Below are positions 24,783 to 56,524 of a stretch of DNA of 64,000 nt, piece after piece (the first letter of the stretch is position 1; every line of letters begins with the position of its first letter). Source of the stretch: a bacterium. GTDB lineage: Bacteria > UBP15 > UBA6099 > JAJRTR01. Under the pieces are notes generated by a model. It made no database searches. It was given only the letters and a program-made list of their open reading frames with translations, and was not told the DNA's origin. The stretch covers positions 11,651 through 75,650 of the forward strand of contig JAJRTR010000135.1 in assembly GCA_024278215.1 (NCBI GenBank), given 5' to 3'. Both the position numbers and the translations under genes were made by a program.

Positions 24783-24804
24783 AGACCAACCTGTTCTCCG
24801 GATT

Positions 24805-26333: not shown

Positions 26334-26344
26334 CTAAAAGAGCC

Positions 26345-26962: not shown

Positions 26963-26968
26963 AAGCTT

Positions 26969-37100: not shown

Positions 37101-39131
37101 CTTGTCCTTCCCCTTTTTAGTTCGACCGCTTTTGTAGGAAAGGCCGAATGCGTTTTTGCTGCCGGTCGAGATAGAGTATGTGCTCTGTTCGTAGCGGACA
37201 TTGAATTTCCTGTCCTGGCGGATGGGTGTCTTGAAGTAGATATCCCCGGTCTCGTAAAGAACAGAGTATTCGCCGGGCGGGATGATCTCACCGGTGTCGG
37301 GGTAATATATCTGGACCGAGCCGGGCGCCATGAAAGCATTAGCGCGGTAAGGGCCGATGTCGCCGTCGCCGTCGAGCTGCACTTCACCGGTCTGTGAGCG
37401 GGACTCCGCCATGAGAGCCTGGAAAGTGAAATGTCCGAAGTCATAACCGAACTCGAGTCCGTTGATTTCCTTCTTGAGGTTGATCCTGCTCGTGCCGGTG
37501 AAAGTCGTTGTGAAATCGCCGAAGTGGACCCGCCCGTCGCTGCCCAGCATCTCGATGTCCAGGTGTTGCGAGGCGCCCGGTGATTTCCTCATTGTCCCGT
37601 CGACTCTGATGCCGTTCTTGAAGCTACCGTCGAGAAACACGTTCCAGTTCTGTTGCAGCTTGTATTTCGCGATGGAAACGTCTTCCTGCTTGTTGAGGCT
37701 GCTGAGAAAAGCTTTTCGCACCTCGCGCTCGCGGATGATCTGGAAAGCGATGCTGCCGGTCATCCTGAAGTCGCCGGCGCAAAGCTGCGGCGGTAGCGAC
37801 TGGTCGCAGCCGTTGTGTTTGGGCTCGATTGTCACAAGCGCGTTCTTTATCAACTGCTTCGAACTCGAGTCGACGGGCAGATATGCTTCTTCAAGTGTTA
37901 CCGGGATGTTCGCACCGGTTTTTATTCCCTTGAAAATCAGCGGAACCACTGTGAGGGGATACTTAAGGCCGGAGAGGTCTTTGGTAAAGTCGCCCAGCAG
38001 GCTCAGCCGTATCTCGCCCTTGCGGTTGTCGACTATATTTGAACCTTCACCGAACGAGTCGTTGTATAAAACAGAGGTCGTCTGTATGCCCCGCGCCGCA
38101 CGGACGGCTTCGCGGTATTCCGCGAGCAGCTTTTCCGCCTCTTTCTTTTTCCCATCCATTTCCACTTCGGTAATTTCAACATTCAGGTTCTTCGCAAGCT
38201 TTTTCAGTTCTCCAAGAGACATGTCGTCGACGCTTTTGACTATATTGACACTGTTGGACGGTATTCCCAGGTTGTTGGTATACACGAGATGCGCCGGATC
38301 ATATTTGATCCGCACGTCGATGCCGTCGAGCGAACGGTATTCCGGGAACTTGTAGATAACAAGATCGAGCCGCACCCACTGGTTGAGGCCGATGACGGCA
38401 TTCTGTTTCGAGAATCCTACGATGACGTCGGCGTCTTCTTCTTTTTCGGCTGTTTCCATCTTTGTGAAACCCAGCGACATCGCCATGGCGTCGGTGTCCT
38501 GTTTGCGGGCCTTCTGTATTTTGTATTTGTTTTCGAGCGAGCCGGTGGTAAGCAAAGTGTTTTCGCCGGCGACCGCTGCCATCAGCAGGGGGTCCATCTC
38601 GAGGCCGTCGTAGCCCACTACCTTGAAATAGCCGGGGTTCGACGGAGAAGTCTTCCCGTCGGCGTTCCGGGCGAACGAGGTGAAACTGATATATGTGGAA
38701 CCGGTTTTCTTCATCCTGAACGGAACTTTGATGAAAATCTGCTTCTCCGTAATCGGCTGTCTTGCAAACGCTTTGAATGTGACGATCCCTTTATCGGTAT
38801 CGACTCTGAAGCGCTCGACCAACTCGAAAACCGGGTCGGCGGCGTAGTAGCTCCTGTCTTTGAAAAGCTCGATGTACGCGGGATCGACTGTCAGTGTACA
38901 CTGTCCGCCGGTGAGTTTGTCGCCCTCCTGCGGCATGATATATATATCGAAGTACGACGTTTCATCGACAGGAACGGCAGCACCGTTTTCGGAAGTGATC
39001 CGGAACTGTGCGGCCTGCACGCAGACAATGCAGCCTGCCGCCATGATAAAAGCGAAAAATAATATGCGGAAGCACAGACCGACAGCCGGTGACGGGACGC
39101 CCGTTATGGTTCTGTACGTTCTTTCAGACAT
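34149..39131 (-). CDS. giant secreted/outer-membrane-associated protein (1660 aa); C-terminal region beta-barrel-like; function unknown
   Basis: N-terminal signal or anchor (LCFRILFFAFIMAAGCIVCVQA). The C-terminal ~600 aa are rich in alternating T/K/N/Y/F beta-strand patterns (...NYGFGFTYSVSSRTNFNLDFKK...). Internal Cys pairs are present. The start overlaps the rsmI 3' end by 28 bp; an alternative GTG start lies at 39098. Confidence 0.5.
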   Translation of the reverse strand: MSERTYRTITGVPSPAVGLCFRILFFAFIMAAGCIVCVQAAQFRITSENGAAVPVDETSYFDIYIMPQEGDKLTGGQCTLTVDPAYIELFKDRSYYAADPVFELVERFRVDTDKGIVTFKAFARQPITEKQIFIKVPFRMKKTGSTYISFTSFARNADGKTSPSNPGYFKVVGYDGLEMDPLLMAAVAGENTLLTTGSLENKYKIQKARKQDTDAMAMSLGFTKMETAEKEEDADVIVGFSKQNAVIGLNQWVRLDLVIYKFPEYRSLDGIDVRIKYDPAHLVYTNNLGIPSNSVNIVKSVDDMSLGELKKLAKNLNVEITEVEMDGKKKEAEKLLAEYREAVRAARGIQTTSVLYNDSFGEGSNIVDNRKGEIRLSLLGDFTKDLSGLKYPLTVVPLIFKGIKTGANIPVTLEEAYLPVDSSSKQLIKNALVTIEPKHNGCDQSLPPQLCAGDFRMTGSIAFQIIREREVRKAFLSSLNKQEDVSIAKYKLQQNWNVFLDGSFKNGIRVDGTMRKSPGASQHLDIEMLGSDGRVHFGDFTTTFTGTSRINLKKEINGLEFGYDFGHFTFQALMAESRSQTGEVQLDGDGDIGPYRANAFMAPGSVQIYYPDTGEIIPPGEYSVLYETGDIYFKTPIRQDRKFNVRYEQSTYSISTGSKNAFGLSYKSGRTKKGKDKYKINTAYMLSMAPSGSTRSIFSDSKVFNLDTQVNVEPADCPGYTATNTCVRVNLGNPYILEGSVKVISGATRYTPTSNPETVILGHRSLFSGQIYILYDNGDEDVKNIGLKGSVTIEFSYYNPNIIVEDVVQVLKFVDADTTEGGLPSDMLPGSELVYLSDTQDETAELDNLPLVCFEGKTGDKDDAGLCPGIRPDLDQQEGITYYIETSGDTDYIKFSKDVESNYYGNPTTETKYVLMSYYIAPPELDSGSKFTKTALGIDTHVNVSDNLSFDVQYTRTNSDLASEFTSAEETMIVDTDTRYRNYESKGEICEYVVPTGDIENATGRKLVCKLNNDNISGQGKVLVSMQFCERGQYICKDEDGNDYKCDDKDKAVSYEIYNADNRESDWYTFPCITDPSTGNYIYKSITHNLNTKTDPEFIGVDREQGNLVIYREFDEGEIGGKDMFLVKFGEAFPSEGDRISVSYIYDEVLSEVVDGDAVVLKNSYKYKGFKMNLEKRVIDPYFDTSMSGKVKGNSKETGYIKGDFSLKFLKNWTIGYLTDNSTKKSFSAGKTDSLIETYHKKHNISYSTGRPVWGIKSLSLVHDVKGDSGISGITSANTKLINNLTTNRDYGIKMDLRKLALAVDGGYKVTDIEKAQQVSADTTTVLKNLNLAFSPKSRRGFSLTSAFSRSNVKQTGSRTRKNVYNLSYKPIRYISLKLKFDKNTSRDNDLAETKIDEKNTYTVNLANMYNFTGIKLSFIRNKTSQQVAPTKTDTNTFNFTWNIRKNLKWTPTFTRKVNQTTAAWTKEKERKWTLKYTPRKSKMKLNISWDRTFKDKTTQNLVIPDSASVDTNPDDRNKFTVNLTPTKKIRTTSFYEDQNGSTQPYKYYKLTYNYNASAKAVLSGGYGVKKMVNYPTTEFDIKYAYKYKPGFRIKTNYSSKDQGGTTGVNSINYGFGFTYSVSSRTNFNLDFKKILAKSKSATTKPLEETSFTAGLKSRL

Positions 39132-44571: not shown

Positions 44572-44859
44572 TCACAAAGTGCCGTCTGTTGCGCGTTGTT
44601 CGAGCCGGTATATGAAAGCGAGCACTTCGGCGACTGCCTGGTAAAGTTCATAGGGAACGGCGTCGCCGAGGTCGAGCCTGACGAGCATCTCGACCAGATT
44701 GCGGTCTTCGTAGAGCGGGACGTCGTGTTCCTGCGCCAGCTCGATGATGCGTTCGGCGATCATCCCTTTGCCGCTTGCCACTACGTGCGGGGCGACGTCC
44801 TGCTCCATGTCGTATTCGAGGGCCGCGGCTTTTTTATGTTTGTATTGTTCGTCTGCCAT
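44572..44859 (-). CDS. FlhB/YscU C-terminal-domain-like small protein (YlqH-like)
   Basis: KKAAALEYDMEQDVAPHVVASGKGMIAERIIELAQEHDVPLYEDRNLVEMLVRL...VPYELYQAVAEVLAFIYRL matches the autocleaving C-terminal domain of FlhB/EscU (the NPTH motif is replaced). 95 aa. Confidence 0.65.
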   Translation of the reverse strand: MADEQYKHKKAAALEYDMEQDVAPHVVASGKGMIAERIIELAQEHDVPLYEDRNLVEMLVRLDLGDAVPYELYQAVAEVLAFIYRLEQRATDGTL

Positions 44860-44860
44860 A

Positions 44861-46951
44861 TCAGATTCTCAAGTCGACCGATGCGAGGGTTTTCGCCGCC
44901 CGCACGACCGGCTTCGCTCCGGATGCGGATTTCCTGCGCCTCACTTTCACCCCGACTTTGTTCTGTTCATAAGCTGTTCTTGAAAGAGCTGCGCGCAACT
45001 CGTCGAGATGTTTCTGAATGAACTCTTTCCGGCGCACGTCCTGCACCTCGATATTGAGTTCGATACCCTTGTTTTTATATGTCTGGAAAGTGAACATGGA
45101 AAGGCCGAGAAAATCCGTGTCCAGAACAAGCACGAGGCGGGCGTCGAAGGGATCGAGCGGTTTCGCGTTTTTATTCTTCCTCTGGTTGTCGTCTTCCCTG
45201 CGGTAGATGTTGAGTTTGCCGATGTGGAGCTTGTCGCCGATTTTGTAAGGGAAGAAGGTGACCATCGACTCGATGGGGGTGGCGGCTGTGTGCTGGACGA
45301 CATTGGCGAAGTTGGCGAACTGAAGACCGCGGGCGAGAGTGTGTGCCGACTGTGTGGCCTGATCGCTGCCCGCGTGCGAAGTCAGCATACGGCCAAGCGC
45401 GGCGCGAAGGTCCTGCGTTTCCGTGAAGTTTTTCAGCATGGCGCTCAGGTCCTGCTGGAACTGTGAGTTCCGGAATATTGTTCTGATGCGATCGAGGAGC
45501 GCGCTGCTGTCGGGGTCGGCGGCGAGTTTTTGGAGTCCGTCATCGCCCTGCGCGAGTGCCTCGAGCGCCATTTTCGCCCACTGGTTCGACGCTTCGGAGA
45601 AGTCCTTCATCGGCCGGCTGCCGGCCTTGTTGAACTCGAAGGCGTCGAGCGCAGCGAGACTGGAAAGCAGCGCGAATATTTCCGCTTTCAATGCCGCCGG
45701 GTTCTGTGTCGCCGCGCTGTCGCCGGCAAGTTGGATAATATTGTTGAAACTATCGACGGCGGCGGCGATGTTTTTCGGCAAGGCCGAAAGCGGCGGGTCG
45801 TTTAACGTGGGAACGGCAGATTGTCCGGTCGGCAGAATTGCGGACTCGACCGGCGGGGGCAGCACAGTGACAGGGGGCGGAGGCGCCTGCCTGCCTGTGT
45901 CGGGGGCTGTATCCACCCTTGCAGAATCCGCCGGCGCTTCGCCGCCCATCATATTACGGAGAGTAAGAAGGACCGCCGAGCGCAGGTTCCGGAACCTGGC
46001 GGACGCGCCGGTGCTATCGAGTGCCTGCCGCGCGGCCTGAAGGAAATCCGCGCGCTGCCTGTCGAGAGTGCCGGACTGAAGCTGCATGTCTTCAATCTGC
46101 TGGAGCATGGTGTTGATTTCAGACCCAATGCCTGCGGCCTGCGCCTGGGGCGGCGTGGTGTCGGGGATTATTTTCAAGAGCGACAGGAGTTGATCCATTA
46201 AGCCGCTTTTTGTCTGGCCACCTTCCGATTCTGCGATTCCGAGCGTTATTATCGCCTCGAAACGTGCTTCGGTCGAATGTGTGAATGCGTTGACAAAAGC
46301 GGGCAGTTTTTCGATGATGTCCGTCACGCTGGAAATATCAGGCGGCGGCACACCTGCCTTTGCAGCTACATCCGCACCCTGTTTGATATTCTGCGGCAGT
46401 GCGTCGAGTTCCTGCTTCATCTGCGGGATCAGGCTGATAATCTCTCGCGAGAGAGGCAGTTCCTCTTTGACCATGGCGGCGGCGAAATCTATTGTCTGTT
46501 GCGATGCGTTTGCAGGAAGCGCGTCGATCATCACCGCAATGTTGCCGCGAGTGACCGGCACACCGATATTCAGCAGCGAGCGCGCCATAGCGATCTGCTG
46601 CGGATGCTCGGGCAGATCGAATCCTATGAGGCGCGAGGAAATCATCCCGTCTGTCAGAGGCCTGACGGTCTGTGTGCTGATCTCGCGCGAGCTTATGATC
46701 TGGAGTTGCAGTTTGCCGTTCTGCTCGTGGCCTTTTACGGTCAGCGAGAGTTCGGAATTTCGCTTGAGGGGTACTTCTGATTCGGCAGTGACGATGCGAC
46801 CGTCGATCTCGAGAAGCGCTTTGCCGCCGGAGAAGTCGATCACCTTTGCATTATACGTATGGTGCATCTGGTCTCCGCCGCCCTTGACCGTCGGAAACTC
46901 GGCGGCGTTTGCGGAGAGACTCACTGCTGAATAATCACTGAAAGCTATCAT
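44861..46951 (-). CDS. FliK-like protein (hook-length-control-type C-terminal 'Flg_hook' domain), orphan
   Basis: The C-terminus ...ARLVLVLDTDFLGLSMFTFQTYKNKGIELNIEVQDVRRKEFIQKHLDELRAAL follows the FliK C-terminal pattern. The N-terminal two-thirds are low-complexity and Ala/Gln/Pro-rich, like FliK. No other flagellar genes are present. 696 aa. Confidence 0.45.
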   Translation of the reverse strand: MIAFSDYSAVSLSANAAEFPTVKGGGDQMHHTYNAKVIDFSGGKALLEIDGRIVTAESEVPLKRNSELSLTVKGHEQNGKLQLQIISSREISTQTVRPLTDGMISSRLIGFDLPEHPQQIAMARSLLNIGVPVTRGNIAVMIDALPANASQQTIDFAAAMVKEELPLSREIISLIPQMKQELDALPQNIKQGADVAAKAGVPPPDISSVTDIIEKLPAFVNAFTHSTEARFEAIITLGIAESEGGQTKSGLMDQLLSLLKIIPDTTPPQAQAAGIGSEINTMLQQIEDMQLQSGTLDRQRADFLQAARQALDSTGASARFRNLRSAVLLTLRNMMGGEAPADSARVDTAPDTGRQAPPPPVTVLPPPVESAILPTGQSAVPTLNDPPLSALPKNIAAAVDSFNNIIQLAGDSAATQNPAALKAEIFALLSSLAALDAFEFNKAGSRPMKDFSEASNQWAKMALEALAQGDDGLQKLAADPDSSALLDRIRTIFRNSQFQQDLSAMLKNFTETQDLRAALGRMLTSHAGSDQATQSAHTLARGLQFANFANVVQHTAATPIESMVTFFPYKIGDKLHIGKLNIYRREDDNQRKNKNAKPLDPFDARLVLVLDTDFLGLSMFTFQTYKNKGIELNIEVQDVRRKEFIQKHLDELRAALSRTAYEQNKVGVKVRRRKSASGAKPVVRAAKTLASVDLRI

Positions 46952-47469: not shown

Positions 47470-47850
47470 TCAGTCCAGTGTGCTGCCGATGATTTCCCTG
47501 ACCTTTGCGATGAGTTCGTCGGGTTCGATGGGTTTGTCGAATACGGCGACCGCGCCGCTGACGGCGAGGTCGCGACCCGCGAGACCACTGATGATGATGA
47601 CCGGCGTATTCTTGAAATCTTTATTCTTCATAAGCGCTCGAAAAAAACGTGTGCCGGTCTCGTTGGGCATCTCGAGGTCGAGCGTTATCAGGTCGGGCTT
47701 GCAGTCGTCGAGCAATCGTTGCGCTATTTCGCCGTCCGCGGCGACACACGTGTCATAATCGTGGTTCTCGAAAAGCGTCTGGAGGAAAATCCTTACATCC
47801 TCTTCGTCGTCAACAATCAATATCGTTTTTTTTCTGTCTTCATCCGTCAT
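47470..47850 (-). CDS. single-domain response regulator (CheY-like receiver)
   Basis: ILIVDDEED...DLITLDLEMP...VIIISG...FDKP has all canonical receiver residues. An RBS AAGGAGA lies 7 nt upstream of the ATG at 47850. The ORF-track start at 47904 lacks an RBS. Confidence 0.8.
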   Translation of the reverse strand: MTDEDRKKTILIVDDEEDVRIFLQTLFENHDYDTCVAADGEIAQRLLDDCKPDLITLDLEMPNETGTRFFRALMKNKDFKNTPVIIISGLAGRDLAVSGAVAVFDKPIEPDELIAKVREIIGSTLD

Positions 47851-48073
47851 GACATCTTCTCCTTGTCGAATGTATCCTGTAGCGCAAACCGGGCGCAGGG
47901 ACATGGCGCGCGTCTTCTAATGTTCGAGTGTCGTATCGTCATTATCGAACAGAAACCTGAAAAAATACACGAAAGAGATCAGAAATATCACTCCGAGCAG
48001 GTATTCTATTCCCTTTGTGTGATAGAAAAACTCCTGTAGCGTATACATTTATCGAATGTCCTTCCGGTTGATG

Positions 48074-49276
48074 TTAGTTCGCCTGCGCCGGAGCTGTATG
48101 CGTGTCGGCGCGGGCGCGATGCGCGGCTTCCAGGTCGTCTGTGAGGATGGGCATCCGGTTGACGATCCACCTGAAGGCGAGTATGCCGATTGTGACGAGC
48201 ATCATAGAGATCATGATCTCGCCGAAACTCGGGAAATAGCGTTCCGCCGCGGGCAGTTTCCAGTTGAATGCTATTATACTGATATTGAAGCGGTTCAGGA
48301 CGATGCCGAGAATAGCGATAACACTCGTGACTTTGACCAGCGTCGCGTTTTCGGTCCGCGCGCCCACGGCGTAAAGGATGCAGGGCAGCAGGATGAAGCC
48401 GAGCATCTCGACGAGGAACCAGTAGCCGTAGGGCGTGTCGAGCAGGTCCCAGTGGTTGCCGTGCGCCACGCCGAGTACTTTTATGCCGAAGTATCCGAAC
48501 ATCATGAGTGAGGCGGCCTTTGCCAGCCCGACGACGATCCTGTCGTGGTTGAAGTGTTCGCCCCTGCTGATAATATTCTTAAAAACATTGTGAGACAGCG
48601 TCGACTCGAAAATCACCATCGAAAGCCCCGCGATTATGCTCGATATGAAGAAGTAAACAGGGATATAGGGCGAGTACCAGAGCGGGTGAATCTTGTCCGG
48701 GGCGATAAGAAACATGGAGCCGAGCGACGACTGGTGCAGTGTGGAAAGCACGACACCGAGAATGGTCAGCGCGAGTGTCATCTTTATGAACAGCCTGTGC
48801 AGCGCGGTCCATTTCAGCCAGGCGAACACGCTGGGCACGAATTCGAGGAACAGCACTGTCAGGTACAGCCCCACGCAGGCCGCCACTTCGAACATAACGG
48901 ATGTGTAGCCGTGCGAAACGAGGAACGGATAAGGCATTCGCCAGGGTCGCCCGACATCGAAGACGAGCCCGACGGCCACAAGGAAATAGCCGAGGAAACC
49001 GGTGAGTATCGCTGGCCTGACTACGGGATGATATTCCTTCATGCCGAAGATGTATACAATGGTGGAGATCGTGTAGCCGCCCGCCGCGAGCGCGACACCG
49101 CACAATACGTCGAACCCGATCCATATACCGAACGGATTGTTATCTGTAAGGTTGGTCACAGCGCCGAGGCCGCCGGTGAAGCGCATGATGGTGAAATAGC
49201 CGCCTATCGCGAGTATTACGCCCGCGATTATATTGAACGGTGTGAATATCGGTGCTTTTGTTTCGTTCATTTCCAC
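48074..49276 (-). CDS. NrfD/PsrC-family integral membrane quinone-interacting subunit (HmcC/DsrP-like)
   Basis: 400 aa with about 10 transmembrane segments and an NrfD-type topology. Adjacent to a Tat-exported 4Fe-4S protein gene. Confidence 0.7.
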   Translation of the reverse strand: MEMNETKAPIFTPFNIIAGVILAIGGYFTIMRFTGGLGAVTNLTDNNPFGIWIGFDVLCGVALAAGGYTISTIVYIFGMKEYHPVVRPAILTGFLGYFLVAVGLVFDVGRPWRMPYPFLVSHGYTSVMFEVAACVGLYLTVLFLEFVPSVFAWLKWTALHRLFIKMTLALTILGVVLSTLHQSSLGSMFLIAPDKIHPLWYSPYIPVYFFISSIIAGLSMVIFESTLSHNVFKNIISRGEHFNHDRIVVGLAKAASLMMFGYFGIKVLGVAHGNHWDLLDTPYGYWFLVEMLGFILLPCILYAVGARTENATLVKVTSVIAILGIVLNRFNISIIAFNWKLPAAERYFPSFGEIMISMMLVTIGILAFRWIVNRMPILTDDLEAAHRARADTHTAPAQAN

Positions 49277-49349
49277 TCCTTCTCAGGTGAGCCGGCGACC
49301 GGGTTATGTTCTGCCGCGTCCGTCCGCGACCGGCCCGGTCGATCTCATG

Positions 49350-50423
49350 TTATTCGCCGCCCTTTTCATCGCCGGTATCCGCCGCCTTTTCAAGGGCTTC
49401 CTTCACTGCCGCCTGTATAGCTCTCTTCTGGTCTCTTTCGGCCTTTTTCTGTGCTTTCTTAAGCGCGACGGCCTGCGCCTTATCGGCCCTGGCCTGCACA
49501 TCGGTCGTCGTCTCGGCAATCGCGGTCGATACAGCGTTCCGGCGCTCTTCCTCGGCTATCTGCCTGCGGCGGTTCGACATGTAATATATGCCGCCAAGCA
49601 ACACCGGCCACAGCATCACGATTACCGGAACGGACGCGAGCGCGCCTTTCGTATACTTCGGATACGGCGTTCGCGCGTAATCCGTCGACATATCCACCTG
49701 GTCGAACGGCACGGGCGACAGGTACATCCAGCTTGTGCCGCCCACTTCGAATTCTCCGTATACGTGGTCGATATATTTATCCGGGTTATCCATGATTCGT
49801 TTCTTCGCGATCTTCAGCAGGTCCGACCGTTTGCCGAAGGTGATAGCTTCCATCGGGCAGGCCTCGGCGCAGGCGGGCGCGCCGCCCTCTCCCATTATCT
49901 TGTCGTAGCACATCGTGCATTTCATGACACGCGGTGTCAGCGGTTCGTCATATTCGTAGGCCGGTATGTAAAACGGGCAGGACACGATGCAGTAGCGGCA
50001 GCCGACACACAGGCTTGCGTCGTACACGACCGGTCCCTCTTTCGTCTTCTTGAGCGCCATTACAAAACAGGCCGACACGCAGGCAGGCTCGTTGCAATGG
50101 TTGCACTGTATCTTCCTGAACACCGGCTTCCCGTTTTCAGTAGCGTATTTGTTGACGACAGTGTACGCCTTCGCGGTCGTCCTGCGTTTCGTTTCGAGGA
50201 CGGACAGATCGTTGAACGGAACATCCGGCGCGGGCAGCTTGTTCTGCTTGTTGCACGCCGCTTCGCAGGTGCGGCAGCCGACGCAGCGGCTGAGGTCTGT
50301 CAGCATACCATAGCGGTCCGGGTATCCGTCGAAGTTTTCTGCGGCAAGCAGCTTGTCGGCGCCGGCAACTGTGCCCGCGCCCGCCGTCAGCGCCCCGAGG
50401 AAATTTCTGCGTGAGATACTCAT
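49350..50423 (-). CDS. Tat-exported 4Fe-4S ferredoxin-type iron-sulfur subunit with C-terminal TM anchor (HybA/HmcB/DsrO-like)
   Basis: Twin-arginine signal SRRNFLGAL. Four ferredoxin-type clusters of Cys (CVGCRTCEAAC, CNHCNEPACVSAC, CVGCRYCIVSCP, CTMC...C). A C-terminal transmembrane segment and a charged tail. Confidence 0.75.
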   Translation of the reverse strand: MSISRRNFLGALTAGAGTVAGADKLLAAENFDGYPDRYGMLTDLSRCVGCRTCEAACNKQNKLPAPDVPFNDLSVLETKRRTTAKAYTVVNKYATENGKPVFRKIQCNHCNEPACVSACFVMALKKTKEGPVVYDASLCVGCRYCIVSCPFYIPAYEYDEPLTPRVMKCTMCYDKIMGEGGAPACAEACPMEAITFGKRSDLLKIAKKRIMDNPDKYIDHVYGEFEVGGTSWMYLSPVPFDQVDMSTDYARTPYPKYTKGALASVPVIVMLWPVLLGGIYYMSNRRRQIAEEERRNAVSTAIAETTTDVQARADKAQAVALKKAQKKAERDQKRAIQAAVKEALEKAADTGDEKGGE

Positions 50424-50581
50424 TTATTCTCCTCCACCGGTTTCCCTTGTACTCCCGGTTACTCTCTTGAGCCGATTGCATTATTCCGTCCATCATCGGT
50501 CGGCTGCAATCAGCCATCCTGCGTATTCCTGCTGTATATTCGACTCCACATTCGAGTCGGCCTGCTTATTCATTCGACCGT

Positions 50582-52093
50582 TCATTTCGGCAAAGGCGAA
50601 TCTTTATCTTTGTGACATTCGCCGCAATCGCTCTTGTCGCTGATACCCATCTCCTCATGGCAACCTATGCACTTGAGATGGAACGCGCCCCGCAGGCCCG
50701 GCCTGTCGGCGGGCAGGGCGTCAAACGGTCCCGAGTGGCATTTCGCGCATGTCGGCGTCGTATCACCCGGCGGGCTGTTGTGGTGGCACGATTGGCATAT
50801 CACCGGCCTGTCGCCGTGGAACACGTTCGACATTTTATCGTCGCGCGCTATTTCGCTGAGTTTCCGCACTACCTGCAAGTGCGGGAACGACACCGGCTGC
50901 AACTGGTCGGCGGCCGAATCTATCATTATTGTTTCAGGCAGATCGTCAGGAATCCGCGCCACCGGATTGTGCAGGGGCCGCGCGACAAGCTGGTTGTCGA
51001 CCGGCCCTGTATGGCAGACGTCGCACGACAATTCCGCGGGACCCGCGGGCAACGTGTCGTGGCAGCCTGCGCACTTTTCCTGTTTCTTCACCTTTTCGTG
51101 GCAACCCACGCAACTGCGCGGCGAGGCGGAGTCGTGGTATGCGTCCGTAAGGATGACACCGCCGCCCTCTTCGCTCGGTTTGGACGTATGGCACTCGTCG
51201 CAGGCTTCCAGCTTTTCATGGTGACACGCCCGGCAGTTGACCGCCACCTGTTCGTGTGCCTTATGATTGAACGGCACCGCCGGAAATGTCTTGTCCGCGA
51301 CTTCGATCAGCGGCATATCCTTCTGGCCCCTGTCGAGACGCGGTACATCGCTCATGTCGGCCAGCAGAGAAGTGAAAGACGGCATGTCGTGGCAGCCCGC
51401 GCAATCGGTCGGCCCGGCGGGTTTGCCCTTTTCGCTCTCGTTCACGTGGCACGTCACACATTTCTCATGCGCCGCGGTCCTAAGCGAGACGATCTCCTTC
51501 GAGCCGTCGCGATCGTGACAGTCGCGACACGAAGACTCGGCGCCCTTTATATACACCAGCTCTTTAGTGGCGGGGTCCTGCTTGTGGTGACATACGCTGC
51601 AATCTTTGTCGAAAGCCTCGACATGCTTGTTGTGCTGCCTCATGTCGAGTTCTATGGGATTAAACTTTTTTTGCGTGTAGCGGCCCGGCCTCAAGTGACA
51701 TTCGCCGCACTGGTCGACCGGCCCACTGCCTTTCTCTTCGGGGCAGCCGATGCACTTATCGTGATACTCTTTTTCATATTCCGCCTTATCGCCGCCTTCC
51801 GCCGGAGTGTATACCTTTAATATCAGGTATCCGTTTTCCCCGGTCGCGTGGCAGGTGGCGCAGCCGTCTTCCTTCGCCGCCCGTTCGCGGTGCGCGGGGT
51901 GGTCGAATGCCACAGGAGCGCGTTCGGCCACGCCCATGCCGGCGGGCATCTCGATTGTCAGCAAACGCTTCGCTTCCTCGCCGGCGGTCCCGCGCTCCCC
52001 GCCCCGGACGTTCACGATCAGGCCGGTCAGAACAAGCGCCGTAAACGCAATTAAGAGAATCACACCCGCTGCATCTGATATTTTGTTTCCCAT
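50582..52093 (-). CDS. multiheme c-type cytochrome, ~15-16 hemes (HmcA-like)
   Basis: N-terminal transmembrane segment or signal. I count 15 CxxCH motifs (CATCH, CGECH, CSVCH, CRDCH, CVTCH, CAGCH, CRACH, CDECH, CVGCH, CAGCH, CDVCH, CQSCH, CAKCH, CIGCH, CGECH) plus one CxxCP variant. Confidence 0.85.
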   Translation of the reverse strand: MGNKISDAAGVILLIAFTALVLTGLIVNVRGGERGTAGEEAKRLLTIEMPAGMGVAERAPVAFDHPAHRERAAKEDGCATCHATGENGYLILKVYTPAEGGDKAEYEKEYHDKCIGCPEEKGSGPVDQCGECHLRPGRYTQKKFNPIELDMRQHNKHVEAFDKDCSVCHHKQDPATKELVYIKGAESSCRDCHDRDGSKEIVSLRTAAHEKCVTCHVNESEKGKPAGPTDCAGCHDMPSFTSLLADMSDVPRLDRGQKDMPLIEVADKTFPAVPFNHKAHEQVAVNCRACHHEKLEACDECHTSKPSEEGGGVILTDAYHDSASPRSCVGCHEKVKKQEKCAGCHDTLPAGPAELSCDVCHTGPVDNQLVARPLHNPVARIPDDLPETIMIDSAADQLQPVSFPHLQVVRKLSEIARDDKMSNVFHGDRPVICQSCHHNSPPGDTTPTCAKCHSGPFDALPADRPGLRGAFHLKCIGCHEEMGISDKSDCGECHKDKDSPLPK

Positions 52094-52148
52094 ATTCAGT
52101 TCCCTTGGTTTCCGTTAAATGTTCTCAATCCTTCTCCGGCACCTGTTT

Positions 52149-53492
52149 TCAATCGCCGCCCGGTCTCAGGTGTTCCGGTATCTCCATGCACCCCTCGTCT
52201 ACAAGCAGTTCGCTGATGAACTTCACATGTGTGCCGGGCGCGTATTCCTTAATAATGTCTTCGATGCCGCTGTGGCAGTTGTGGCAGGGGGTCACGACCA
52301 CCTCGGCCCCGGTCGCGTTTATCTGGTCGCCTTTGGTCCTGTTGGCGACTACCCTGTTTCTCGTCCAGGGCGGGCCGCAGTTGATGACCCCGCCGCCCGC
52401 GCCGCAACAGTAGTTATGCTCGAATCTCGGGTTCATGTCCCTGAAATCCTCGCACAGCCAGTTCATCAGGTCGCGCAGCTTGCCGCCCAGCCCCCGGCCG
52501 CGCACCGTGTTGCAGGGGTCCTGCACTGTGACGGGCTTTTTGAACTTTTTAACGATCTTGATCTTTCCGCTTGTTATCAGGTCGTGGTAGAACTCGATCG
52601 CGTGAATCACCGGCACAGCCGGATACGCCTGACCGATATGCCTTGGGCCGTCGTACACCGCGCCGCGGAATGCGTGCCCGCACTCGCCCATGACGATCTT
52701 TTTGACTTTCAGGCGCATCGCCGTCTCGTGGTGCAGCCGCTCGAGGCGACCGCTCGACTCGAAGTCGCCCGAGTACATCGCCATGTTGCTGTTGTCCCAG
52801 CCGTCGGTGGCGGGCATCGTCCAGTCCAGGCCGGCCACGGCGAATATCACCGCCGCGTTCGCCAGCAACTGCGCCAGTATCTTCGGCTCCGGCGCAATGA
52901 CCGAGTACATTATGTCCGCGCCTTCCTTCTCCAGTGGTATCCGCGCCGTCTTCACCACTTTCTGCGCGTCTTCCTCCTGCCACTGAAGCGTGTCGATCCA
53001 CTCGTCCTGCTGCACCCACATCTGGTTATAGGTGACCGAGTGGCTGTTTGTCGTATCCTGAAGGTACATCGGCACCACGCCCAGCATGCTGCATATCCGC
53101 CGCACGACCATCAACAGGTATGCTATGTCAATGCCGAACGGACAGTACATGCTGCACCTGCGGCAGCCGCCACACTCGATATACGCTATGCGCGCGGCCA
53201 GCTTCATGAACTCCGGCGACACTTTGCAGTCTTTCTTGAATATCTCCACAAGCGTGTCTTTCACCTTGGCGACCGGAGCATACTTCGGGTCCATATCGTG
53301 CGAGATGCACTGGTGGCACGCTGTCGCGCACAGGCCGCAATGCACGCACGTGTCCATGTAGACCTTGAGGCGCGCGCCGCATTCCTTGTCCAGCGCAAAC
53401 CGAATCGTCTCCTTGATCTTCTCCGGAGTAAGTTTCTTTATCGATTCATCAAGACCATCGTCTTTAACTTCGGGCCTCGGTTCGTATTTCAT
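52149..53492 (-). CDS. HdrD-like Fe-S protein with two [4Fe-4S] ferredoxin motifs and CCG domains (HmcF/DsrK/TmcB-like)
   Basis: CVHCGLCATAC and CGGCRRCSMYCP ferredoxin motifs. The C-terminal Cys-rich CCG-type motifs are CGHAFRG, DPCNTVRG, NYCCGAGGG and PCHNCH. Cytoplasmic, no signal peptide. Confidence 0.7.
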   Translation of the reverse strand: MKYEPRPEVKDDGLDESIKKLTPEKIKETIRFALDKECGARLKVYMDTCVHCGLCATACHQCISHDMDPKYAPVAKVKDTLVEIFKKDCKVSPEFMKLAARIAYIECGGCRRCSMYCPFGIDIAYLLMVVRRICSMLGVVPMYLQDTTNSHSVTYNQMWVQQDEWIDTLQWQEEDAQKVVKTARIPLEKEGADIMYSVIAPEPKILAQLLANAAVIFAVAGLDWTMPATDGWDNSNMAMYSGDFESSGRLERLHHETAMRLKVKKIVMGECGHAFRGAVYDGPRHIGQAYPAVPVIHAIEFYHDLITSGKIKIVKKFKKPVTVQDPCNTVRGRGLGGKLRDLMNWLCEDFRDMNPRFEHNYCCGAGGGVINCGPPWTRNRVVANRTKGDQINATGAEVVVTPCHNCHSGIEDIIKEYAPGTHVKFISELLVDEGCMEIPEHLRPGGD

Positions 53493-53525
53493 TGTGTTTT
53501 CTCCTTATTGTCGCTCCTGAATTTG

Positions 53526-54161
53526 TCACCAGTCTCTCGCGTTCCGGACGAAACCGAATTCGCAGGCCATATATGCACGGGTGAACACGAAATAGAGCAT
53601 GTGCGCAATTCGCGTGAAGGGGATCATCATCAGCATCAGGCAGCCCGACAGCATGTGTATTGTGATTACCGTGCCGTAGTCGAACCACTGGTGATAGGCC
53701 AGAAACCCGGTGATATAAGGAAGCGTGACAAACAGCAACAGCGCGTAGTCGGCCGCCGATGTGACATTCTTCACATAAGGCACAAGTATCCGCCGCTGGA
53801 GAAAATATACACCGCCGACGATTACTATTACCGTCATCAGGTCCGCAAGCCGGCCGGGCAGCGTTGGGAACTGTATGCCCCATATCTTCCAGTGAGCCGC
53901 CAGCAGCAGCGGCGTCGCTATCAGGCATATATGGAACAGAAACGCATACGCCGTCATAACCGGGTTGATCCTCATACCCCTGGTGCCGTAAGGCAGCAGC
54001 CAGTGTTTGAGCGACCGCAGACTGAAGCTCAGCCGCATATACGGCATTATCACTTTTTCCTGTTTCGCCGCCTTTATCATCGCTGTTATTTTGTAGACGC
54101 TGCCCGCGATCATCACGAAGAAGGCTATCCAGACTAAAGGCCCGCTGATAAAATCCTGCAT
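53526..54161 (-). CDS. membrane di-heme cytochrome b, NarI/HdrE-like (HmcE/DsrM-like)
   Basis: 211 aa, 5-6 transmembrane segments, conserved His in TM2 and TM5. Directly upstream of and co-directional with the HdrD-like gene. Confidence 0.6.
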   Translation of the reverse strand: MQDFISGPLVWIAFFVMIAGSVYKITAMIKAAKQEKVIMPYMRLSFSLRSLKHWLLPYGTRGMRINPVMTAYAFLFHICLIATPLLLAAHWKIWGIQFPTLPGRLADLMTVIVIVGGVYFLQRRILVPYVKNVTSAADYALLLFVTLPYITGFLAYHQWFDYGTVITIHMLSGCLMLMMIPFTRIAHMLYFVFTRAYMACEFGFVRNARDW

Positions 54162-54310
54162 TTGGTTTCCCTCGACTCCTTTTCCGGTCCTGTCACAACC
54201 CGGATCCGGATTATTTTTCTTATCCAGTGCATTACAAGTGAACGCCGGGCATTCGACCGGTGAGTACGGGCCGGAGAACCCCGGATCGACAAAAAACGCA
54301 CAAACTTCAG

Positions 54311-55606
54311 TTATTTTATTTCATTAAGCGGCATCACACGCCGACAATACTTTCCGCCTTCGACATACCTGAGCAGAACCTTCGCGCCGTCCGGGCTCAT
54401 TATCGGCTCCCATAGCATTTCAAACGGCTGGTTCCAGACCCTGCCGTCTACCGCGACAAAGTATTTGCCGTCCTGCTCGCCCTTGGCGACGACCGACGAA
54501 CCGTCATGGCTAAACGCCGGTTTCCAGACCATATCGAAATCCACCGGCCACGGCTTGCCGTCCACACATATCGACCACCTGTTGTTGTCCTTCGTGATCG
54601 CCGCCACCCTCGCGCTGTCCGGCGAAAACACCTGATCGCGCACAACGTCCGCAAACGTGATGTCCCACGCCCTGTCGTCCACGGCGACCGTCGTCCTGCC
54701 GAACTCCGGGCACACAACCGCGCAGACCCTATTCGCGTCCGGGCTGAAAACAAGTTTCCATATCTGCATGAACCGGCTGTCCCAGATCGGCGAACCGTCC
54801 TCGTAGAGCGCGAACCCGCCCGCTGTCTTCACAGGCGCCAACAGCGACCCCGTGCCCGGCCTGAACCCGGGCTCCCACACATGCGCGAAAATCTCCGGCC
54901 ATAATTTTCCGTCCGCCACTATCCCGTACTTCATGTTGTCGACGCGCACCTGAAGCCCGACATGCCTGCCGTCGTCGCTCAGTGTCACTCCCCACGTGTT
55001 CATATACTTGTCGTCCCAAGGCTTGTCGTCCACTACCACGCCCCACGTGCCATCGAGAAAAGTGAATACATCGGCTTCCGACAGTTCCTCAAGCTGCGCT
55101 AGAACAGCGACCGTCGCGCCGTCCCTGCTCATCTGAAATTCCCTTATTGACAGATACGTGTTTTCCCAGGGCTTACCGTCGATACATACCGAATACTGAA
55201 AGTTCTTCTTCGTCTGCACACCGATGCGACCGCCGTCCGCGCTGAATTGCGTGTTCCAGACATACTCGAACTTCTCGTCCCATACGCTGCCGTCCACCCC
55301 CACTGTCCACTCGTCGTCGCTCATTACCAGCGCCGCAAGCCGCGCGTCCGGCCCGAATCGCGGATACCACAGCCTCTCAAAACGCGCATCCCACAATTCA
55401 CCATTCACACATGCCGTGAATTCGCCGTCTCCCGTTTTCACAGGGACAGCTATCTTCTCGCCGTCGCCGCTGACGACAAATTCATGGACCTCGGAATATT
55501 TATTCCCGATATCAGCGACATCAGCGATAATCTTTTTGTCCGGTTCCCAATTCCAGTCTTTATAATCCGGCATCTGCTTCTCCTTTGTTGCACAGCCTCT
55601 CGACAT
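54311..55606 (-). CDS. cytoplasmic tandem-repeat beta-propeller-like protein (~9 repeats of ~40 aa; PD40/WG-repeat-like)
   Basis: A repeating unit [V/I]xVDGKxWxxxFxxVWxPxFSxDGxxVA recurs 9-10 times (for example VCIDGKPWENTY..., VAVDDRAWDITFADVVRDQVFSPDSARVAA, ICVDGKPWPVDFDMVWKPAFSHDGSSVVA). No signal peptide. Confidence 0.55.
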   Translation of the reverse strand: MSRGCATKEKQMPDYKDWNWEPDKKIIADVADIGNKYSEVHEFVVSGDGEKIAVPVKTGDGEFTACVNGELWDARFERLWYPRFGPDARLAALVMSDDEWTVGVDGSVWDEKFEYVWNTQFSADGGRIGVQTKKNFQYSVCIDGKPWENTYLSIREFQMSRDGATVAVLAQLEELSEADVFTFLDGTWGVVVDDKPWDDKYMNTWGVTLSDDGRHVGLQVRVDNMKYGIVADGKLWPEIFAHVWEPGFRPGTGSLLAPVKTAGGFALYEDGSPIWDSRFMQIWKLVFSPDANRVCAVVCPEFGRTTVAVDDRAWDITFADVVRDQVFSPDSARVAAITKDNNRWSICVDGKPWPVDFDMVWKPAFSHDGSSVVAKGEQDGKYFVAVDGRVWNQPFEMLWEPIMSPDGAKVLLRYVEGGKYCRRVMPLNEIK

Positions 55607-55683
55607 CGTCGCCGCATGACCGCGAAATACTTTTCGCGCGCATCACACTGTCTCCATTGTTTTTGCTCCGCGCCGACACGGCG

Positions 55684-56163
55684 TCACATCTTCTTGTCGC
55701 ATTTCACAGTGACCGGCGGCTCGGCCTCACCGGTACGCTCTTTATATCTTTCCAGCATCTTCGTTTCCGAAAGGTCGTTCAGCGAATATTCCGCCAGTAC
55801 ATCCGTTATCTGCGCCTTGATCAGCCCCCACATCTTTCGCGACGTGCATACATCCTCGAACTTGCAGTTCCCCTCGTAAGTTACACAGTCGAGCAGGTCG
55901 ATGCCGCCCATGCTCGCGTCGATCACATCCAGCGCTTTTATCCGGTCGCCGGGTTTCGCCAGCGTGTAGCCTCCCAGCTTTCCCTGCACACTCCTGATGA
56001 GGCCCTGGTTTTTCAGCGCCATCACGAGCTGTTCGAGATACTTAAAAGGGAGCCCCTGTTCTTTAGCGATTTCCTTGAGTTTGATAGGTTCGCCACGATC
56101 ATAATTATCGGAGAGATAGACCATCAATCTAAGTGAATATATAGCGCGAGTAGATAATCTCAT
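55684..56163 (-). CDS. Rrf2-family transcriptional regulator (Fe-S-cluster type, IscR/NsrR-like)
   Basis: MRLSTRAIYSLRLMVYL is the Rrf2 wHTH N-terminus. Three clustered Cys (C..C.....C in CVTYEGNCKFEDVC) suggest a cluster ligand set. The start is preferred at the Met at 56163 over the ORF-track start at 56178. Confidence 0.75.
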   Translation of the reverse strand: MRLSTRAIYSLRLMVYLSDNYDRGEPIKLKEIAKEQGLPFKYLEQLVMALKNQGLIRSVQGKLGGYTLAKPGDRIKALDVIDASMGGIDLLDCVTYEGNCKFEDVCTSRKMWGLIKAQITDVLAEYSLNDLSETKMLERYKERTGEAEPPVTVKCDKKM

Positions 56164-56524
56164 AATAAAACCGCCCAAAAAGCCGACTTACGCCCTACTT
56201 ATCCTGTCGAACTGGTAGGGTTACGCGGCGAAAAAATATATTGCTCCTGAAACATGAGCAATATCCCCTTCCGCAACAACCTTTTTTCGGGTTTACCCTC
56301 CGTTTATCCTATTAGTCAGATATGATTATAACGGTTACCGCAGAAAATGCAATACCCTTATAGATTTTTTTTCAGGTGACCTGCTAACCTGCGCTGTTTT
56401 TTACTCTTATTTGCTAAATTCGTGTGCTCTTTCGATATTATGTGAGAGTTCCGGGCACATGGCTGTCCCGCTCCCGGGGTAGCCTCTGGGAACAATGAAA
56501 TACCTGTATGGGGGTGAGCATTTT

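Follow-up and report, generated by a model that had tools for sequence, protein, structure and literature searches.

Genes and subunits of the locus

The locus comprises nine minus-strand genes within the window (the whole stretch of DNA analysed, 64,000 nucleotides), transcribed in the order Rrf2-TmcD-TmcC-TmcB-HmcA-HmcB-HmcC-HmcD-response regulator, so that seven structural genes are flanked by an Rrf2 regulator and a CheY-like receiver protein (Table 1). Subunit identities were assigned with curated NCBI equivalog models by comparing each bit score with the cutoff of the model, and HmcA, HmcB, HmcC and HmcD all passed, in line with the Hmc-related transmembrane redox module proposed in a first-pass annotation of this DNA. 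That annotation had listed five consecutive genes, encoding a cytochrome b, a CCG protein, a cytochrome c, an Fe-S protein and an NrfD protein; all five were found, but the count overlooked TmcD and HmcD and must be raised to seven. HmcD had been described as not visible, which is incorrect, since a short ORF matches the HmcD model and can be aligned to DVU_0533-family peptides from two relatives (L001 and L002; 65-69% identity). The family searches that the annotation had called for matched Tmc and Hmc models and left Dsr and Qrc models under cutoff; the window proteins scored far below the cutoffs of the 9-heme cytochrome, QrcA, QrcC and QrcD models. None of the nine ORFs is truncated or disrupted. 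The true starts are probably the ATG at 56163 for Rrf2, the ATG at 55573 for TmcD, and the ATG at 47850, preceded by an AAGGAG motif, for the response regulator.

Table 1. Features of the locus in order of transcription, with model matches (cutoffs in brackets)
Feature	Position	Strand	Length	Match and remarks
Rrf2-family transcriptional regulator	55684-56178	-		PF02082 108 bits; TIGR00738 111 bits (73.3)
TmcD	54311-55606	-	431 aa	NF045725 TmcD_fam 508.2 bits (440)
TmcC	53526-54161	-	211 aa	Nitrate_red_gam; NF045723 TmcC 266.6 bits (240)
TmcB	52149-53492	-	447 aa	NF045724 TmcB 677 bits (735), best match
HmcA	50582-52093	-	503 aa	NF045713 HmcA 432.2 bits (400)
HmcB	49350-50423	-	357 aa	NF045715 HmcB 463.4 bits (420)
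HmcC	48074-49276	-	400 aa	NF045714 HmcC 574.6 bits (550); PF03916 NrfD
HmcD	47917-48048	-	43 aa	NF045712 HmcD 40.7 bits (34); single TM
Response regulator, receiver-only single domain	47470-47904	-		PF00072 76 bits; NF045717 DVU0259_DivK 141.7 bits (160)
Whole locus, nine genes	47470-56178	-		

TmcD, predicted to be cytoplasmic, is a tryptophan-rich β-propeller subunit (21 Trp residues) with no TM segment and no signal peptide; its AlphaFold2 model (pLDDT 95.9) is an all-β propeller, for which Foldseek returned only generic WD40/TolB propellers. TmcC, the analogue of DsrM and HmcE, is a membrane cytochrome b of the NarI type that carries two hemes b; its His77, 90, 169 and 187 are invariant among 61 homologues. 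TmcB is a cytoplasmic analogue of DsrK, HdrD and HmcF, carrying two [4Fe-4S] ferredoxin motifs and one CCG domain that includes the GECGH cysteine; its invariant cysteines (58 homologues) are the eight of the ferredoxin motifs together with C271, C327, C362, C363, C403 and C406. The GECGH and CCG motifs have been defined for TmcB/HmcF (PMC10861901), and both are found here.

The cytochrome b and the CCG protein had been taken for HmcE and HmcF, an assignment that the scores reverse. TmcC passes its own model and reaches 161.7 bits against the HmcE model (cutoff 275), while TmcB, although 58 bits short of the NCBI TmcB cutoff, scores 380.7 bits against HmcF (cutoff 750) and 200.6 bits against DsrK (cutoff 400). 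TmcB is 55.7% identical to Oleidesulfovibrio TmcB versus 39% to HmcF (35-40% across canonical hmc operons), and in the CCG part of the phylogeny suggested for the CCG and NrfD subunits, Tmc-type proteins and HmcF separate with 100% bootstrap support, with the window's protein on the Tmc side. The base reading of the annotation, a canonical HmcABCDEF operon that lost HmcD and had its E/F genes relocated to the front, is consequently highly improbable. HmcA, HmcB and HmcC do pass their model cutoffs, a true HmcE-HmcF-HmcA-B-C-D order exists (L061), and E/F-like genes lie upstream of HmcA-B-C elsewhere (L030); yet both proteins are Tmc-type, TmcD is present although canonical Hmc is without it, and HmcD is present. 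The family scores, the HmcD match, the identities and the CCG-protein tree together refute this reading.

HmcA is a periplasmic high-molecular-weight multiheme cytochrome c that matches solved HMC structures (2e84, 1gws, 1h29, 1z1n). It contains exactly 15 CxxCH motifs, the number originally counted; of the roughly 16 hemes suggested, 15 sites are intact, and the 16th is there as CIGCP (residues 114-118), its histidine replaced by proline (codon CCC). This substitution in heme motif 2, His118→Pro, is the sole exception to the invariance of the ligands at the locus, the heme-b and Fe-S ligands included. Pro118 is unique among 84 HmcA-like sequences, the other 83 having His, and apart from it no motif histidine varies at any of the 16 sites. 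Because the change takes away the proximal ligand of heme 2, this copy of HmcA may hold 15 hemes or have impaired function. That the locus is decaying or non-functional here, with His118→Pro reflecting relaxed selection, would fit the uniqueness of Pro118 and intergenic gaps wider than those of relatives, but the intact, full-length ORFs and the retention of every other cofactor ligand make this very unlikely, and mis-assembly of a metagenome bin could equally account for the single A→C change (CAC→CCC).

HmcB is a Tat-exported periplasmic Fe-S protein with a C-terminal membrane anchor, as anticipated: it bears a twin-arginine signal (TIGR01409), one C-terminal TM segment (261-279) and four Fe-S cluster motifs whose 16 cysteines are invariant among 59 homologues. 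HmcC, an NrfD-family integral membrane protein with about 10 hydrophobic segments by hydropathy, is presumed to be the quinone-interacting subunit. Their best non-Hmc matches are HybA (215.6 bits) for HmcB and HybB (282.3 bits) for HmcC, and these bear on a further proposal, that of an Hmc/Dsr hybrid with a large cytochrome instead of DsrJ in a DsrMKJOP-type complex. The parallel drawn with the module order DsrM-K-J-O-P holds, and TmcB and HmcB show weak matches to DsrK and DsrO; however, the DsrK score lies at half its cutoff, DsrO reaches 102 bits (cutoff 200), and the DsrM, DsrP and DsrJ models gave zero matches. Such a hybrid is accordingly given hardly any weight, the resemblance being one of architecture, not orthology.

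Among the regulators, the Rrf2 and CheY-like assignments were borne out by the domain matches. Rrf2 does lie upstream of the operon, but not directly before the cytochrome b gene, since the TmcD ORF intervenes. Its translation shows a C-x6-C-x5-C triad (LLDCVTYEGNCKFEDVC), consistent, at the level of sequence, with a cluster-binding Rrf2; the equivalently placed Rrf2 proteins of L001 and L002 share 58-59% identity with it, and Nitratidesulfovibrio rrf2 shares 32%. The receiver protein is of the DVU0259/DivK type and shares 48.7% identity with the 131-aa response regulator that follows the Oleidesulfovibrio tmc operon and 39% with Nitratidesulfovibrio rrf1. The hmc pattern named in the annotation, an operon followed by a response regulator and Rrf2, is seen in Nitratidesulfovibrio (L036, L081). 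An upstream Rrf2 is present in two of the 28 composite loci that could be assessed; the Rrf2 and response-regulator frame is common mainly to the window's closest relatives. The Fe-S-type Rrf2 and the DivK-like receiver probably regulate the operon.

Gene order and distribution of the composite operon

Standalone tmc operons are transcribed D-C-B-A in Oleidesulfovibrio (L083) and in L088 and L061. The order that had appeared non-canonical is thus the native tmc order, with HmcABCD in the place of TmcA. The operon is likely a tmc operon in its D-C-B order in which a whole periplasmic and membrane Hmc module replaces the small tetraheme TmcA, and its products probably form one composite transmembrane redox complex, TmcD-TmcC-TmcB with HmcA-HmcB-HmcC-HmcD.

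The arrangement is not unique to the window: the synteny comparison that the annotation had advised found the TmcD-C-B-HmcA-B-C(-D) row in 33 of 82 HmcA-anchored loci (L001-L082), in which TmcB is 54-74% identical to that of the window. The carriers include Zixibacteria, Ignavibacteriales, Myxococcota, Acidobacteriota, Nitrospirota, a Spirochaetales MAG and others. Additional composite loci were fetched through TmcD homologues, outside the HmcA set (L084, L085, L087), among them that of the cultured sulfate reducer Thermodesulfovibrio hydrogeniphilus (L084). A TmcD-anchored sample of four contained two loci in the window order, one TmcD-C-B-HmcB-C-D-HmcA variant and one standalone tmc. The literature search found no published description of a Tmc-Hmc fusion, and the composite is apparently a widespread variant of the Hmc/Tmc family, undescribed so far.

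Alternatively, two independent complexes could be encoded side by side, a cytochrome-less TmcBCD, likened to the TmcA-less Tmc of Seep-SRB1a/g, and HmcABCD as a cytochrome c:menaquinone oxidoreductase, likened to NhcABCD, which is without a cytoplasmic subunit. Tmc operons without TmcA are on record (PMC10553843), and menaquinone is the assumed electron acceptor of the Nhc and Ohc complexes, which lack a CCG protein (PMC6491731, PMC4287179). In Desulfobacterales, tmc and hmc operons are neighbouring yet separate (L061, L039, L047; PMC5109826), several HmcA loci in the 'other/incomplete' group consist of A-B-C-(D) with no adjoining E/F or Tmc genes, and the TmcB-HmcA junction of the window measures 55 nt. 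Nevertheless, many of these 'A-B-C only' loci end at contig edges, the TmcB-HmcA junction persists across 33 loci of many phyla, where the median gap is 4 nt (HmcB-HmcC median -4), and HmcA occupies the exact TmcA slot. The Hmc genes of L086 and L076 are reordered but still fused to TmcB, which overlaps HmcB by 4 nt in L086. Two separate complexes are therefore considered unlikely. The window's own intergenic gaps span 33-169 nt, longer than those of its relatives; a terminator scan found no minus-strand terminator-like sites in them, and the TmcD-TmcC gap holds a weak promoter-like site, in a scan whose total sites were no higher than chance.

Proposed electron path

The data show which subunits are encoded, where they are predicted to lie, their cofactor ligands and a conserved synteny; the composite complex would physically join a cytoplasmic Tmc half to a periplasmic Hmc half. 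The whole path, including the direction of electron flow, the coupling to quinone and the substrate, is modelled by analogy on the Hmc, Tmc and Dsr families, which have been characterised. Periplasmic HmcA would be the point of electron entry or exit, from which electrons would pass to the four Fe-S clusters of HmcB, seated on HmcC with HmcD, where HmcC may exchange electrons with menaquinone. The two b hemes of TmcC would carry the electrons across the membrane to TmcB, whose two [4Fe-4S] clusters and catalytic CCG-domain cluster would receive them; TmcB would then reduce a disulfide or trisulfide on a protein or a small molecule. Its putative partner would be DsrC in sulfate reducers and some other thiol partner elsewhere, and TmcD is most likely a docking or scaffold subunit. 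A scan of about 30 window ORFs yielded no DsrC-like ORF, hydrogenase or sulfate-reduction gene, and a comparison of neighbouring genes found no catalytic partner recurring beside composite operons.

Comparison with known complexes

DsrMKJOP shares with the locus five modules in the same order (cytochrome b, CCG protein, periplasmic cytochrome c, Fe-S protein, NrfD protein) and the CCG catalytic cysteine motif. However, no window subunit meets any Dsr model cutoff, a cytochrome of about 16 hemes stands in place of triheme DsrJ, HmcB resembles HybA more than DsrO and HmcC resembles HybB more than DsrP, and TmcD and HmcD are extra. NhcABCD and QrcABCD, cytochrome c:menaquinone oxidoreductases of sulfate reducers, likewise combine a periplasmic multiheme cytochrome, an Fe-S protein and an NrfD-family subunit, but both are without the cytochrome b and cytoplasmic CCG module.

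Hmc of Desulfovibrio (Nitratidesulfovibrio) vulgaris (HmcABCDEF with rrf1 and rrf2) provides orthologues of HmcA-B-C-D in the same internal order and the same general build of periplasmic multiheme cytochrome, NrfCD-like module, cytochrome b and cytoplasmic CCG protein, and each locus is accompanied by an Rrf2 and a response regulator. It differs in that the cytochrome b and CCG subunits of the window are Tmc-type (HmcE is 30-39% identical to TmcC) and encoded upstream, not downstream; additionally, the window has the TmcD β-propeller, a divergent Rrf2 placed upstream, and an HmcA with 15 intact heme motifs.

Tmc of Desulfovibrio vulgaris and Oleidesulfovibrio alaskensis (TmcABCD) contributes orthologues of TmcD, TmcC and TmcB transcribed in this order, a c3-family cytochrome gene directly after TmcB, a DVU0259-type receiver protein downstream, and the CCG and GECGH catalytic motifs. 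Whereas its TmcA is a tetraheme protein of 125-129 aa, the window encodes the far larger HmcA, along with an upstream Rrf2 and the periplasmic Fe-S and NrfD membrane module formed by HmcB, HmcC and HmcD.

Tmc-type and Hmc-type genes in one operon

The operon consists of nine consecutive minus-strand genes (47470-56178), named by curated family models. The first-pass annotation had described five of them as an Hmc-like complex flanked by two regulators. These five genes are real, and all the features ascribed to them were confirmed, namely the 15 CxxCH motifs of the cytochrome c and the twin-arginine signal and C-terminal anchor of the Fe-S protein; the inventory nevertheless comprises nine genes rather than seven, since TmcD and HmcD had been overlooked. 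Both of these, including the HmcD said not to be visible, lie inside the interval that the annotation itself had delimited. The internal order HmcA-B-C-D, read from the coordinates, is that of Hmc.

Genes of the operon, with family models and their scores
Product	Length (aa)	Position	Strand	Model and score
Rrf2 regulator	164	55684-56178	-	PF02082, 108.2 bits; TIGR00738, 111.2 bits
TmcD	431	54311-55606	-	NF045725, 508.2 bits (cutoff 440)
TmcC, cytochrome b	211	53526-54161	-	NF045723, 266.6 bits (cutoff 240)
TmcB, ferredoxin/CCG	447	52149-53492	-	NF045724, 677 bits (cutoff 735), best match
HmcA	503	50582-52093	-	NF045713, 432.2 bits (cutoff 400)
HmcB, Tat signal	357	49350-50423	-	NF045715, 463.4 bits (cutoff 420)
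HmcC, NrfD family	400	48074-49276	-	NF045714, 574.6 bits (cutoff 550)
HmcD, small TM protein	43	47917-48048	-	NF045712, 40.7 bits (cutoff 34; NCBIfam)
Receiver-only response regulator	144	47470-47904	-	NF045717, DVU0259/DivK, 141.7 bits (cutoff 160)

The cytochrome b and the cytoplasmic Fe-S subunit (the CCG protein) had been taken for HmcE and HmcF, an assignment that had to be abandoned. TmcC reaches 161.7 bits against the HmcE model (cutoff 275) and TmcB 380.7 bits against the HmcF model (cutoff 750), their identities to Nitratidesulfovibrio HmcE and HmcF are 31% and 39%, and both genes lie upstream of HmcA. Window TmcB is 55.7% identical to Oleidesulfovibrio TmcB. In a neighbour-joining tree of CCG proteins, a comparison proposed in the first-pass annotation, it falls with the Tmc type, which is separated from HmcF with 100% bootstrap. 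The CCG and cytochrome b subunits sort cleanly by operon class. CCG proteins from canonical hmc operons (HmcA-B-C-(D)-E-F) share 70-100% identity with HmcF references and 35-40% with window TmcB; those from composite operons, in which TmcD-TmcC-TmcB and HmcA-HmcB-HmcC(-HmcD) stand in one row, show median identities of 67.6% to the window protein, 58.6% to standalone TmcB and about 35% to HmcF. Standalone TmcB proteins are monophyletic (96%), and the two branching orders of composites and standalone Tmc drew 56% and 24% of bootstraps, giving no clear preference for either form as the ancestral one.

The cofactor sites are well preserved. In TmcC, His 77, 90, 169 and 187 are invariant among 61 homologues, and in TmcB the eight ferredoxin cysteines, Cys271 (in GECGH) and the CCG-domain residues Cys327, 362, 363, 403 and 406 are invariant among 58. 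A single CCG motif together with a T/GECGH cysteine is the published signature of TmcB and HmcF (PMC10861901). HmcB contains 16 invariant cysteines, sufficient for four clusters. Because neither a signal peptide nor a TM segment is predicted for TmcB or TmcD, both are assigned to the cytoplasm; HmcA possesses a hydrophobic segment at its N-terminus, and HmcC about ten such segments. The HmcA sequence matches solved high-molecular-weight cytochrome structures (2e84, 1gws, 1h29 and 1z1n), and PDB sequence searches found no solved relatives of TmcB or HmcC. The sixteenth heme site of HmcA exists, at heme motif 2, but reads CIGCP, and Pro118 is the sole non-histidine at the 16 motif histidine positions across 84 aligned HmcA-like proteins. 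Its codon, CCC (51740-51742, minus strand), is one A→C change away from CAC, so that CIGCP represents either a genuine 15-heme variant or an assembly error.

Relatives of TmcD bear PD40 repeats. The AlphaFold2 model of TmcD, computed from an alignment of 40 sequences, is of very high confidence (pLDDT 95.9, pTM 0.88) and shows an all-β propeller; its matches in a Foldseek search of the PDB were all generic WD40/TolB propellers (TM-scores 0.23-0.47). The conserved columns are mostly tryptophan and include no cysteine; a docking or scaffold subunit is the most reasonable guess at its role.

Distribution and gene order of the composite

Scanning the HmcA alignment against one genome per species returned 80 loci, and 82 loci were classified by BLASTP with the window's proteins. 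The row TmcD-TmcC-TmcB-HmcA-HmcB-HmcC(-HmcD) was present in 33 of these 82, about 40% of the sample, and two more, labelled Gemmatimonadaceae and Syntrophaceae, are probable composites cut at the 5' end. Canonical HmcA-B-C-(D)-E-F accounted for 23 of the 82, carrying the labels Desulfovibrio, Nitratidesulfovibrio, Desulfobacterales-type taxa and unclassified deltaproteobacterial MAGs. One locus each showed HmcABCD-TmcD-TmcC-TmcB, E/F-like genes upstream of HmcA-B-C, and, in a Desulfobacterales MAG (L061), HmcE-F-A-B-C-D plus a separate standalone tmc; the remaining 21 were incomplete. Close relatives of window HmcA were not found, the best being 50% identical. Of its relatives on long contigs, the nearest two (L001 and L002) display a row identical to that of the window, Rrf2-TmcD-TmcC-TmcB-HmcA-HmcB-HmcC-HmcD-response regulator.

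Composites occur in MAGs labelled Zixibacteria, Ignavibacteriales, Eisenibacteria, Hatepunaea, Myxococcota, Acidobacteriota (including Sulfomarinibacteraceae), Spirochaetales, Nitrospirota/Thermodesulfovibrionales and Desulfomonilaceae. Searching through TmcD homologues added a sulfate reducer in culture, Thermodesulfovibrio hydrogeniphilus (L084; GCA_054657355.1), a Polyangiaceae MAG (L085) and a Pseudomonadota MAG (L087). A cytochrome-last variant, TmcD-TmcC-TmcB-HmcB-HmcC-(HmcD)-HmcA, was identified in Elusimicrobiota (L086:9001-16607) and Acidobacteriota (L076).

The first-pass annotation had regarded the gene order as non-canonical, a view corrected by the standalone tmc operons. The one in Oleidesulfovibrio (L083) is transcribed TmcD-TmcC-TmcB-TmcA (416, 219, 439 and 129 aa, the last with four hemes); downstream of it lie a hypothetical gene, a Usp gene, two response regulators and a histidine kinase. 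The same D-C-B-A order recurs in a second standalone operon (L088) and in that of L061. In these operons the gene after TmcB encodes a cytochrome of 125-129 aa, with four CxxCH motifs counted in L061 and L083. The window thus retains the native tmc order: HmcA fills the cytochrome slot after TmcB, and HmcB, C and D come next in native hmc order, so that HmcABCD stands in the place of TmcA.

Several variants were observed alongside the main arrangement. The locus of a Proteobacteria MAG (L026) reads Rrf2-HmcA-B-C-D-TmcD-TmcC-TmcB, which is the canonical Hmc layout with Tmc-type subunits and TmcD, and its TmcB groups with standalone TmcBs (clade bootstrap 96-99%). Two adjacent ORFs take the place of a single TmcB gene in three Thermodesulfovibrionales composites (L027, L033 and L052), where they measure about 270-280 and 162-175 aa, and at L087:10948-12263, where they measure 127 and 324 aa. 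Recurring in separate genomes, the split may be a natural division between ferredoxin and CCG domains or may reflect frameshifts. Additionally, two TmcDCB-HmcABC copies, or one copy immediately preceded by an additional HmcABC remnant, were present in L052, L018, L029 and L027/L033, the last two belonging to one MAG; some copies are in tandem. Such duplicates suggest paralogous specialisation.

One complex or two, and the cytoplasmic partner

Gene spacing is tight in the composite loci: the median gap is 4 nt from TmcB to HmcA (33 loci) and -4 nt from HmcB to HmcC, and in L086 TmcB overlaps HmcB by 4 nt. The row could alternatively represent two complexes placed side by side, a cytochrome-less Tmc and an Nhc-like quinone reductase. 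Precedents exist for both halves, in Tmc operons that lack TmcA and in Nhc/Ohc complexes that lack a CCG protein (PMC10553843, PMC6491731, PMC4287179), and the intergenic gaps of the window (47905-56178) are longer, at 33-169 nt, than those of the 33 composites, whose medians run from -4 to 27 nt. The close TmcB-HmcA spacing of the relatives, together with a Tmc-Hmc linkage that persists across many phyla even where the Hmc genes are permuted, makes such a pair of complexes the less probable reading, though a serious rival. That conserved linkage argues, on the evidence of gene order, for one functional unit. Rfam models detected nothing in the intergenic gaps of the operon and one tRNA in the whole window. 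No coding-strand terminator-like site was found in the operon gaps by a scan that performed no better than chance, yielding 7 promoter-like and 12 terminator-like sites where 6.7 and 10.3, respectively, were expected.

The regulators had been likened to rrf1 and rrf2 of the hmc operon. The analogy is real as a theme, given that in Nitratidesulfovibrio loci HmcA-F is followed by a response regulator and Rrf2, but it is not conserved in the composite class. Rrf2 lies immediately upstream in the window, L001 and L002, and overall in 2 of 28 assessable composite loci compared with 8 of 19 canonical hmc loci; among 29 composites, 8 have a short response regulator downstream. The response regulator of the window shares 48.7% identity with the 131-aa regulator of the Oleidesulfovibrio tmc locus, as opposed to 39% with Nitratidesulfovibrio hmc rrf1. 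The translated Rrf2 contains the C-x6-C-x5-C triad typical of cluster-binding members, and none of the Rrf2 equivalog models (IscR, NsrR, CymR, RirA) was matched at cutoff.

By analogy with characterised families, electrons would pass from the HmcA hemes to the HmcB clusters, then possibly through menaquinone at HmcC/HmcD to the b hemes of TmcC, and would continue through the TmcB clusters to the CCG cluster and a cytoplasmic disulfide or trisulfide. HmcC is a member of the quinone-interacting NrfD family, Tmc plays an important part in the hydrogen oxidation of D. alaskensis G20, and in Desulfovibrio Hmc and Tmc are separate complexes, with continuing debate over their cytoplasmic partner (PMC4215793). 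A search of the 64-kb window for ORFs resembling DsrC gave none. Among the roughly 30 ORFs examined there was no hydrogenase gene and no dsr, apr or sat gene, in agreement with the earlier remark that sulfate-reduction genes are missing from the window. Clustering of the regions flanking composite operons revealed no conserved catalytic partner, with regulators alone recurring: response regulators at 12 loci, PAS histidine kinases at 9 and σ54-type activators at 7.

We tentatively propose, as a reading that we consider possible though not probable, that TmcDCB-HmcABCD rather than the Hmc and Tmc of Desulfovibrio is the principal and perhaps ancestral form, serving as a conduit to a thiol/disulfide other than DsrC. 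If so, it would couple the quinone pool or periplasmic cytochromes with a non-DsrC cytoplasmic thiol/disulfide partner and would constitute a general, so far uncharacterised, periplasm-to-cytoplasm disulfide-reducing conduit. The conduit proposal concerns the carriers that are not sulfate reducers, namely Zixibacteria, Ignavibacteriales, Myxococcota, Elusimicrobiota and the bacterium of the window.

The rest of the window holds several other genes. Directly downstream of the operon (44572-46951, minus strand), a 696-aa ORF without an NCBIfam match and a 95-aa ORF resemble, when read by eye, FliK-like hook-length and FlhB C-terminal-like proteins; a promoter-like TTCAAA-16-TATAAT (10/12 matches) lies upstream of them at 47242-47215. 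A very large ORF of 1660 aa (34149-39131, minus strand) has no Pfam match at E ≤ 1e-5. In a type IV pilus/secretin cluster (21882-28174, minus strand), a GspD/PilQ-type secretin of 966 aa is encoded together with a PilO-like protein and PilM. The PilM has a further match to the Amuc_1101 (Akkermansia) PilM-like family, a faint pointer at most to membership of the bacterium in the PVC group. Two paralogous amidohydrolase-family genes (PRK09061-like; 2799-4535 and 18583-20067, plus strand) lie about 14 kb apart, the second adjoining a 701-aa ADP-forming, fermentative acetate-CoA ligase, and an ABC/GldG-like transporter is also present.

Significance and relation to known complexes

Since existing models recognise each gene and public genomes contain the arrangement in abundance, the operon is not a new kind of system. 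The literature searched contained no account of a TmcDCB-HmcABC(D) operon, although an earlier description may exist. To our knowledge, nearly all study of Hmc and Tmc has been confined to Desulfovibrio. The share of composites and their spread over phyla suggest that Hmc and Tmc, as known from textbooks, each represent a lineage-specific version of a wider family of modules, which has its layout in common with DsrMKJOP. For genome annotation, adjoining "Hmc" and "Tmc" gene calls may denote one complex. The composite is useful for tracing the evolution of Hmc/Tmc/Dsr-type complexes and for CCG substrates outside the classical sulfate reducers, and it raises a testable question, the substrate of the CCG subunit in organisms that possibly lack DsrC. 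Thermodesulfovibrio hydrogeniphilus, as a cultured carrier, is suited to co-transcription and co-purification tests.

Compared with Tmc, the window has the D-C-B order in common and its proteins match the TmcD and TmcC models; it lacks the tetraheme TmcA as sole periplasmic subunit and has instead the 503-aa HmcA together with HmcB, HmcC and HmcD. Compared with Hmc, it matches the HmcA, B, C and D models and lacks HmcE and HmcF downstream of HmcD. The module order parallels that of DsrMKJOP, as the first-pass annotation had stated. Its suggestion of an Hmc/Dsr hybrid is not borne out, because no subunit attains a Dsr cutoff: window proteins score 200.6 bits with the DsrK model (cutoff 400) and 102.1 bits with DsrO (cutoff 200), and the DsrM, DsrP and DsrJ models match none of the operon proteins. 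The best relatives outside Hmc are HybA for HmcB (215.6 bits) and HybB for HmcC (282.3 bits), rather than DsrO and DsrP. The likeness to DsrMKJOP is architectural.
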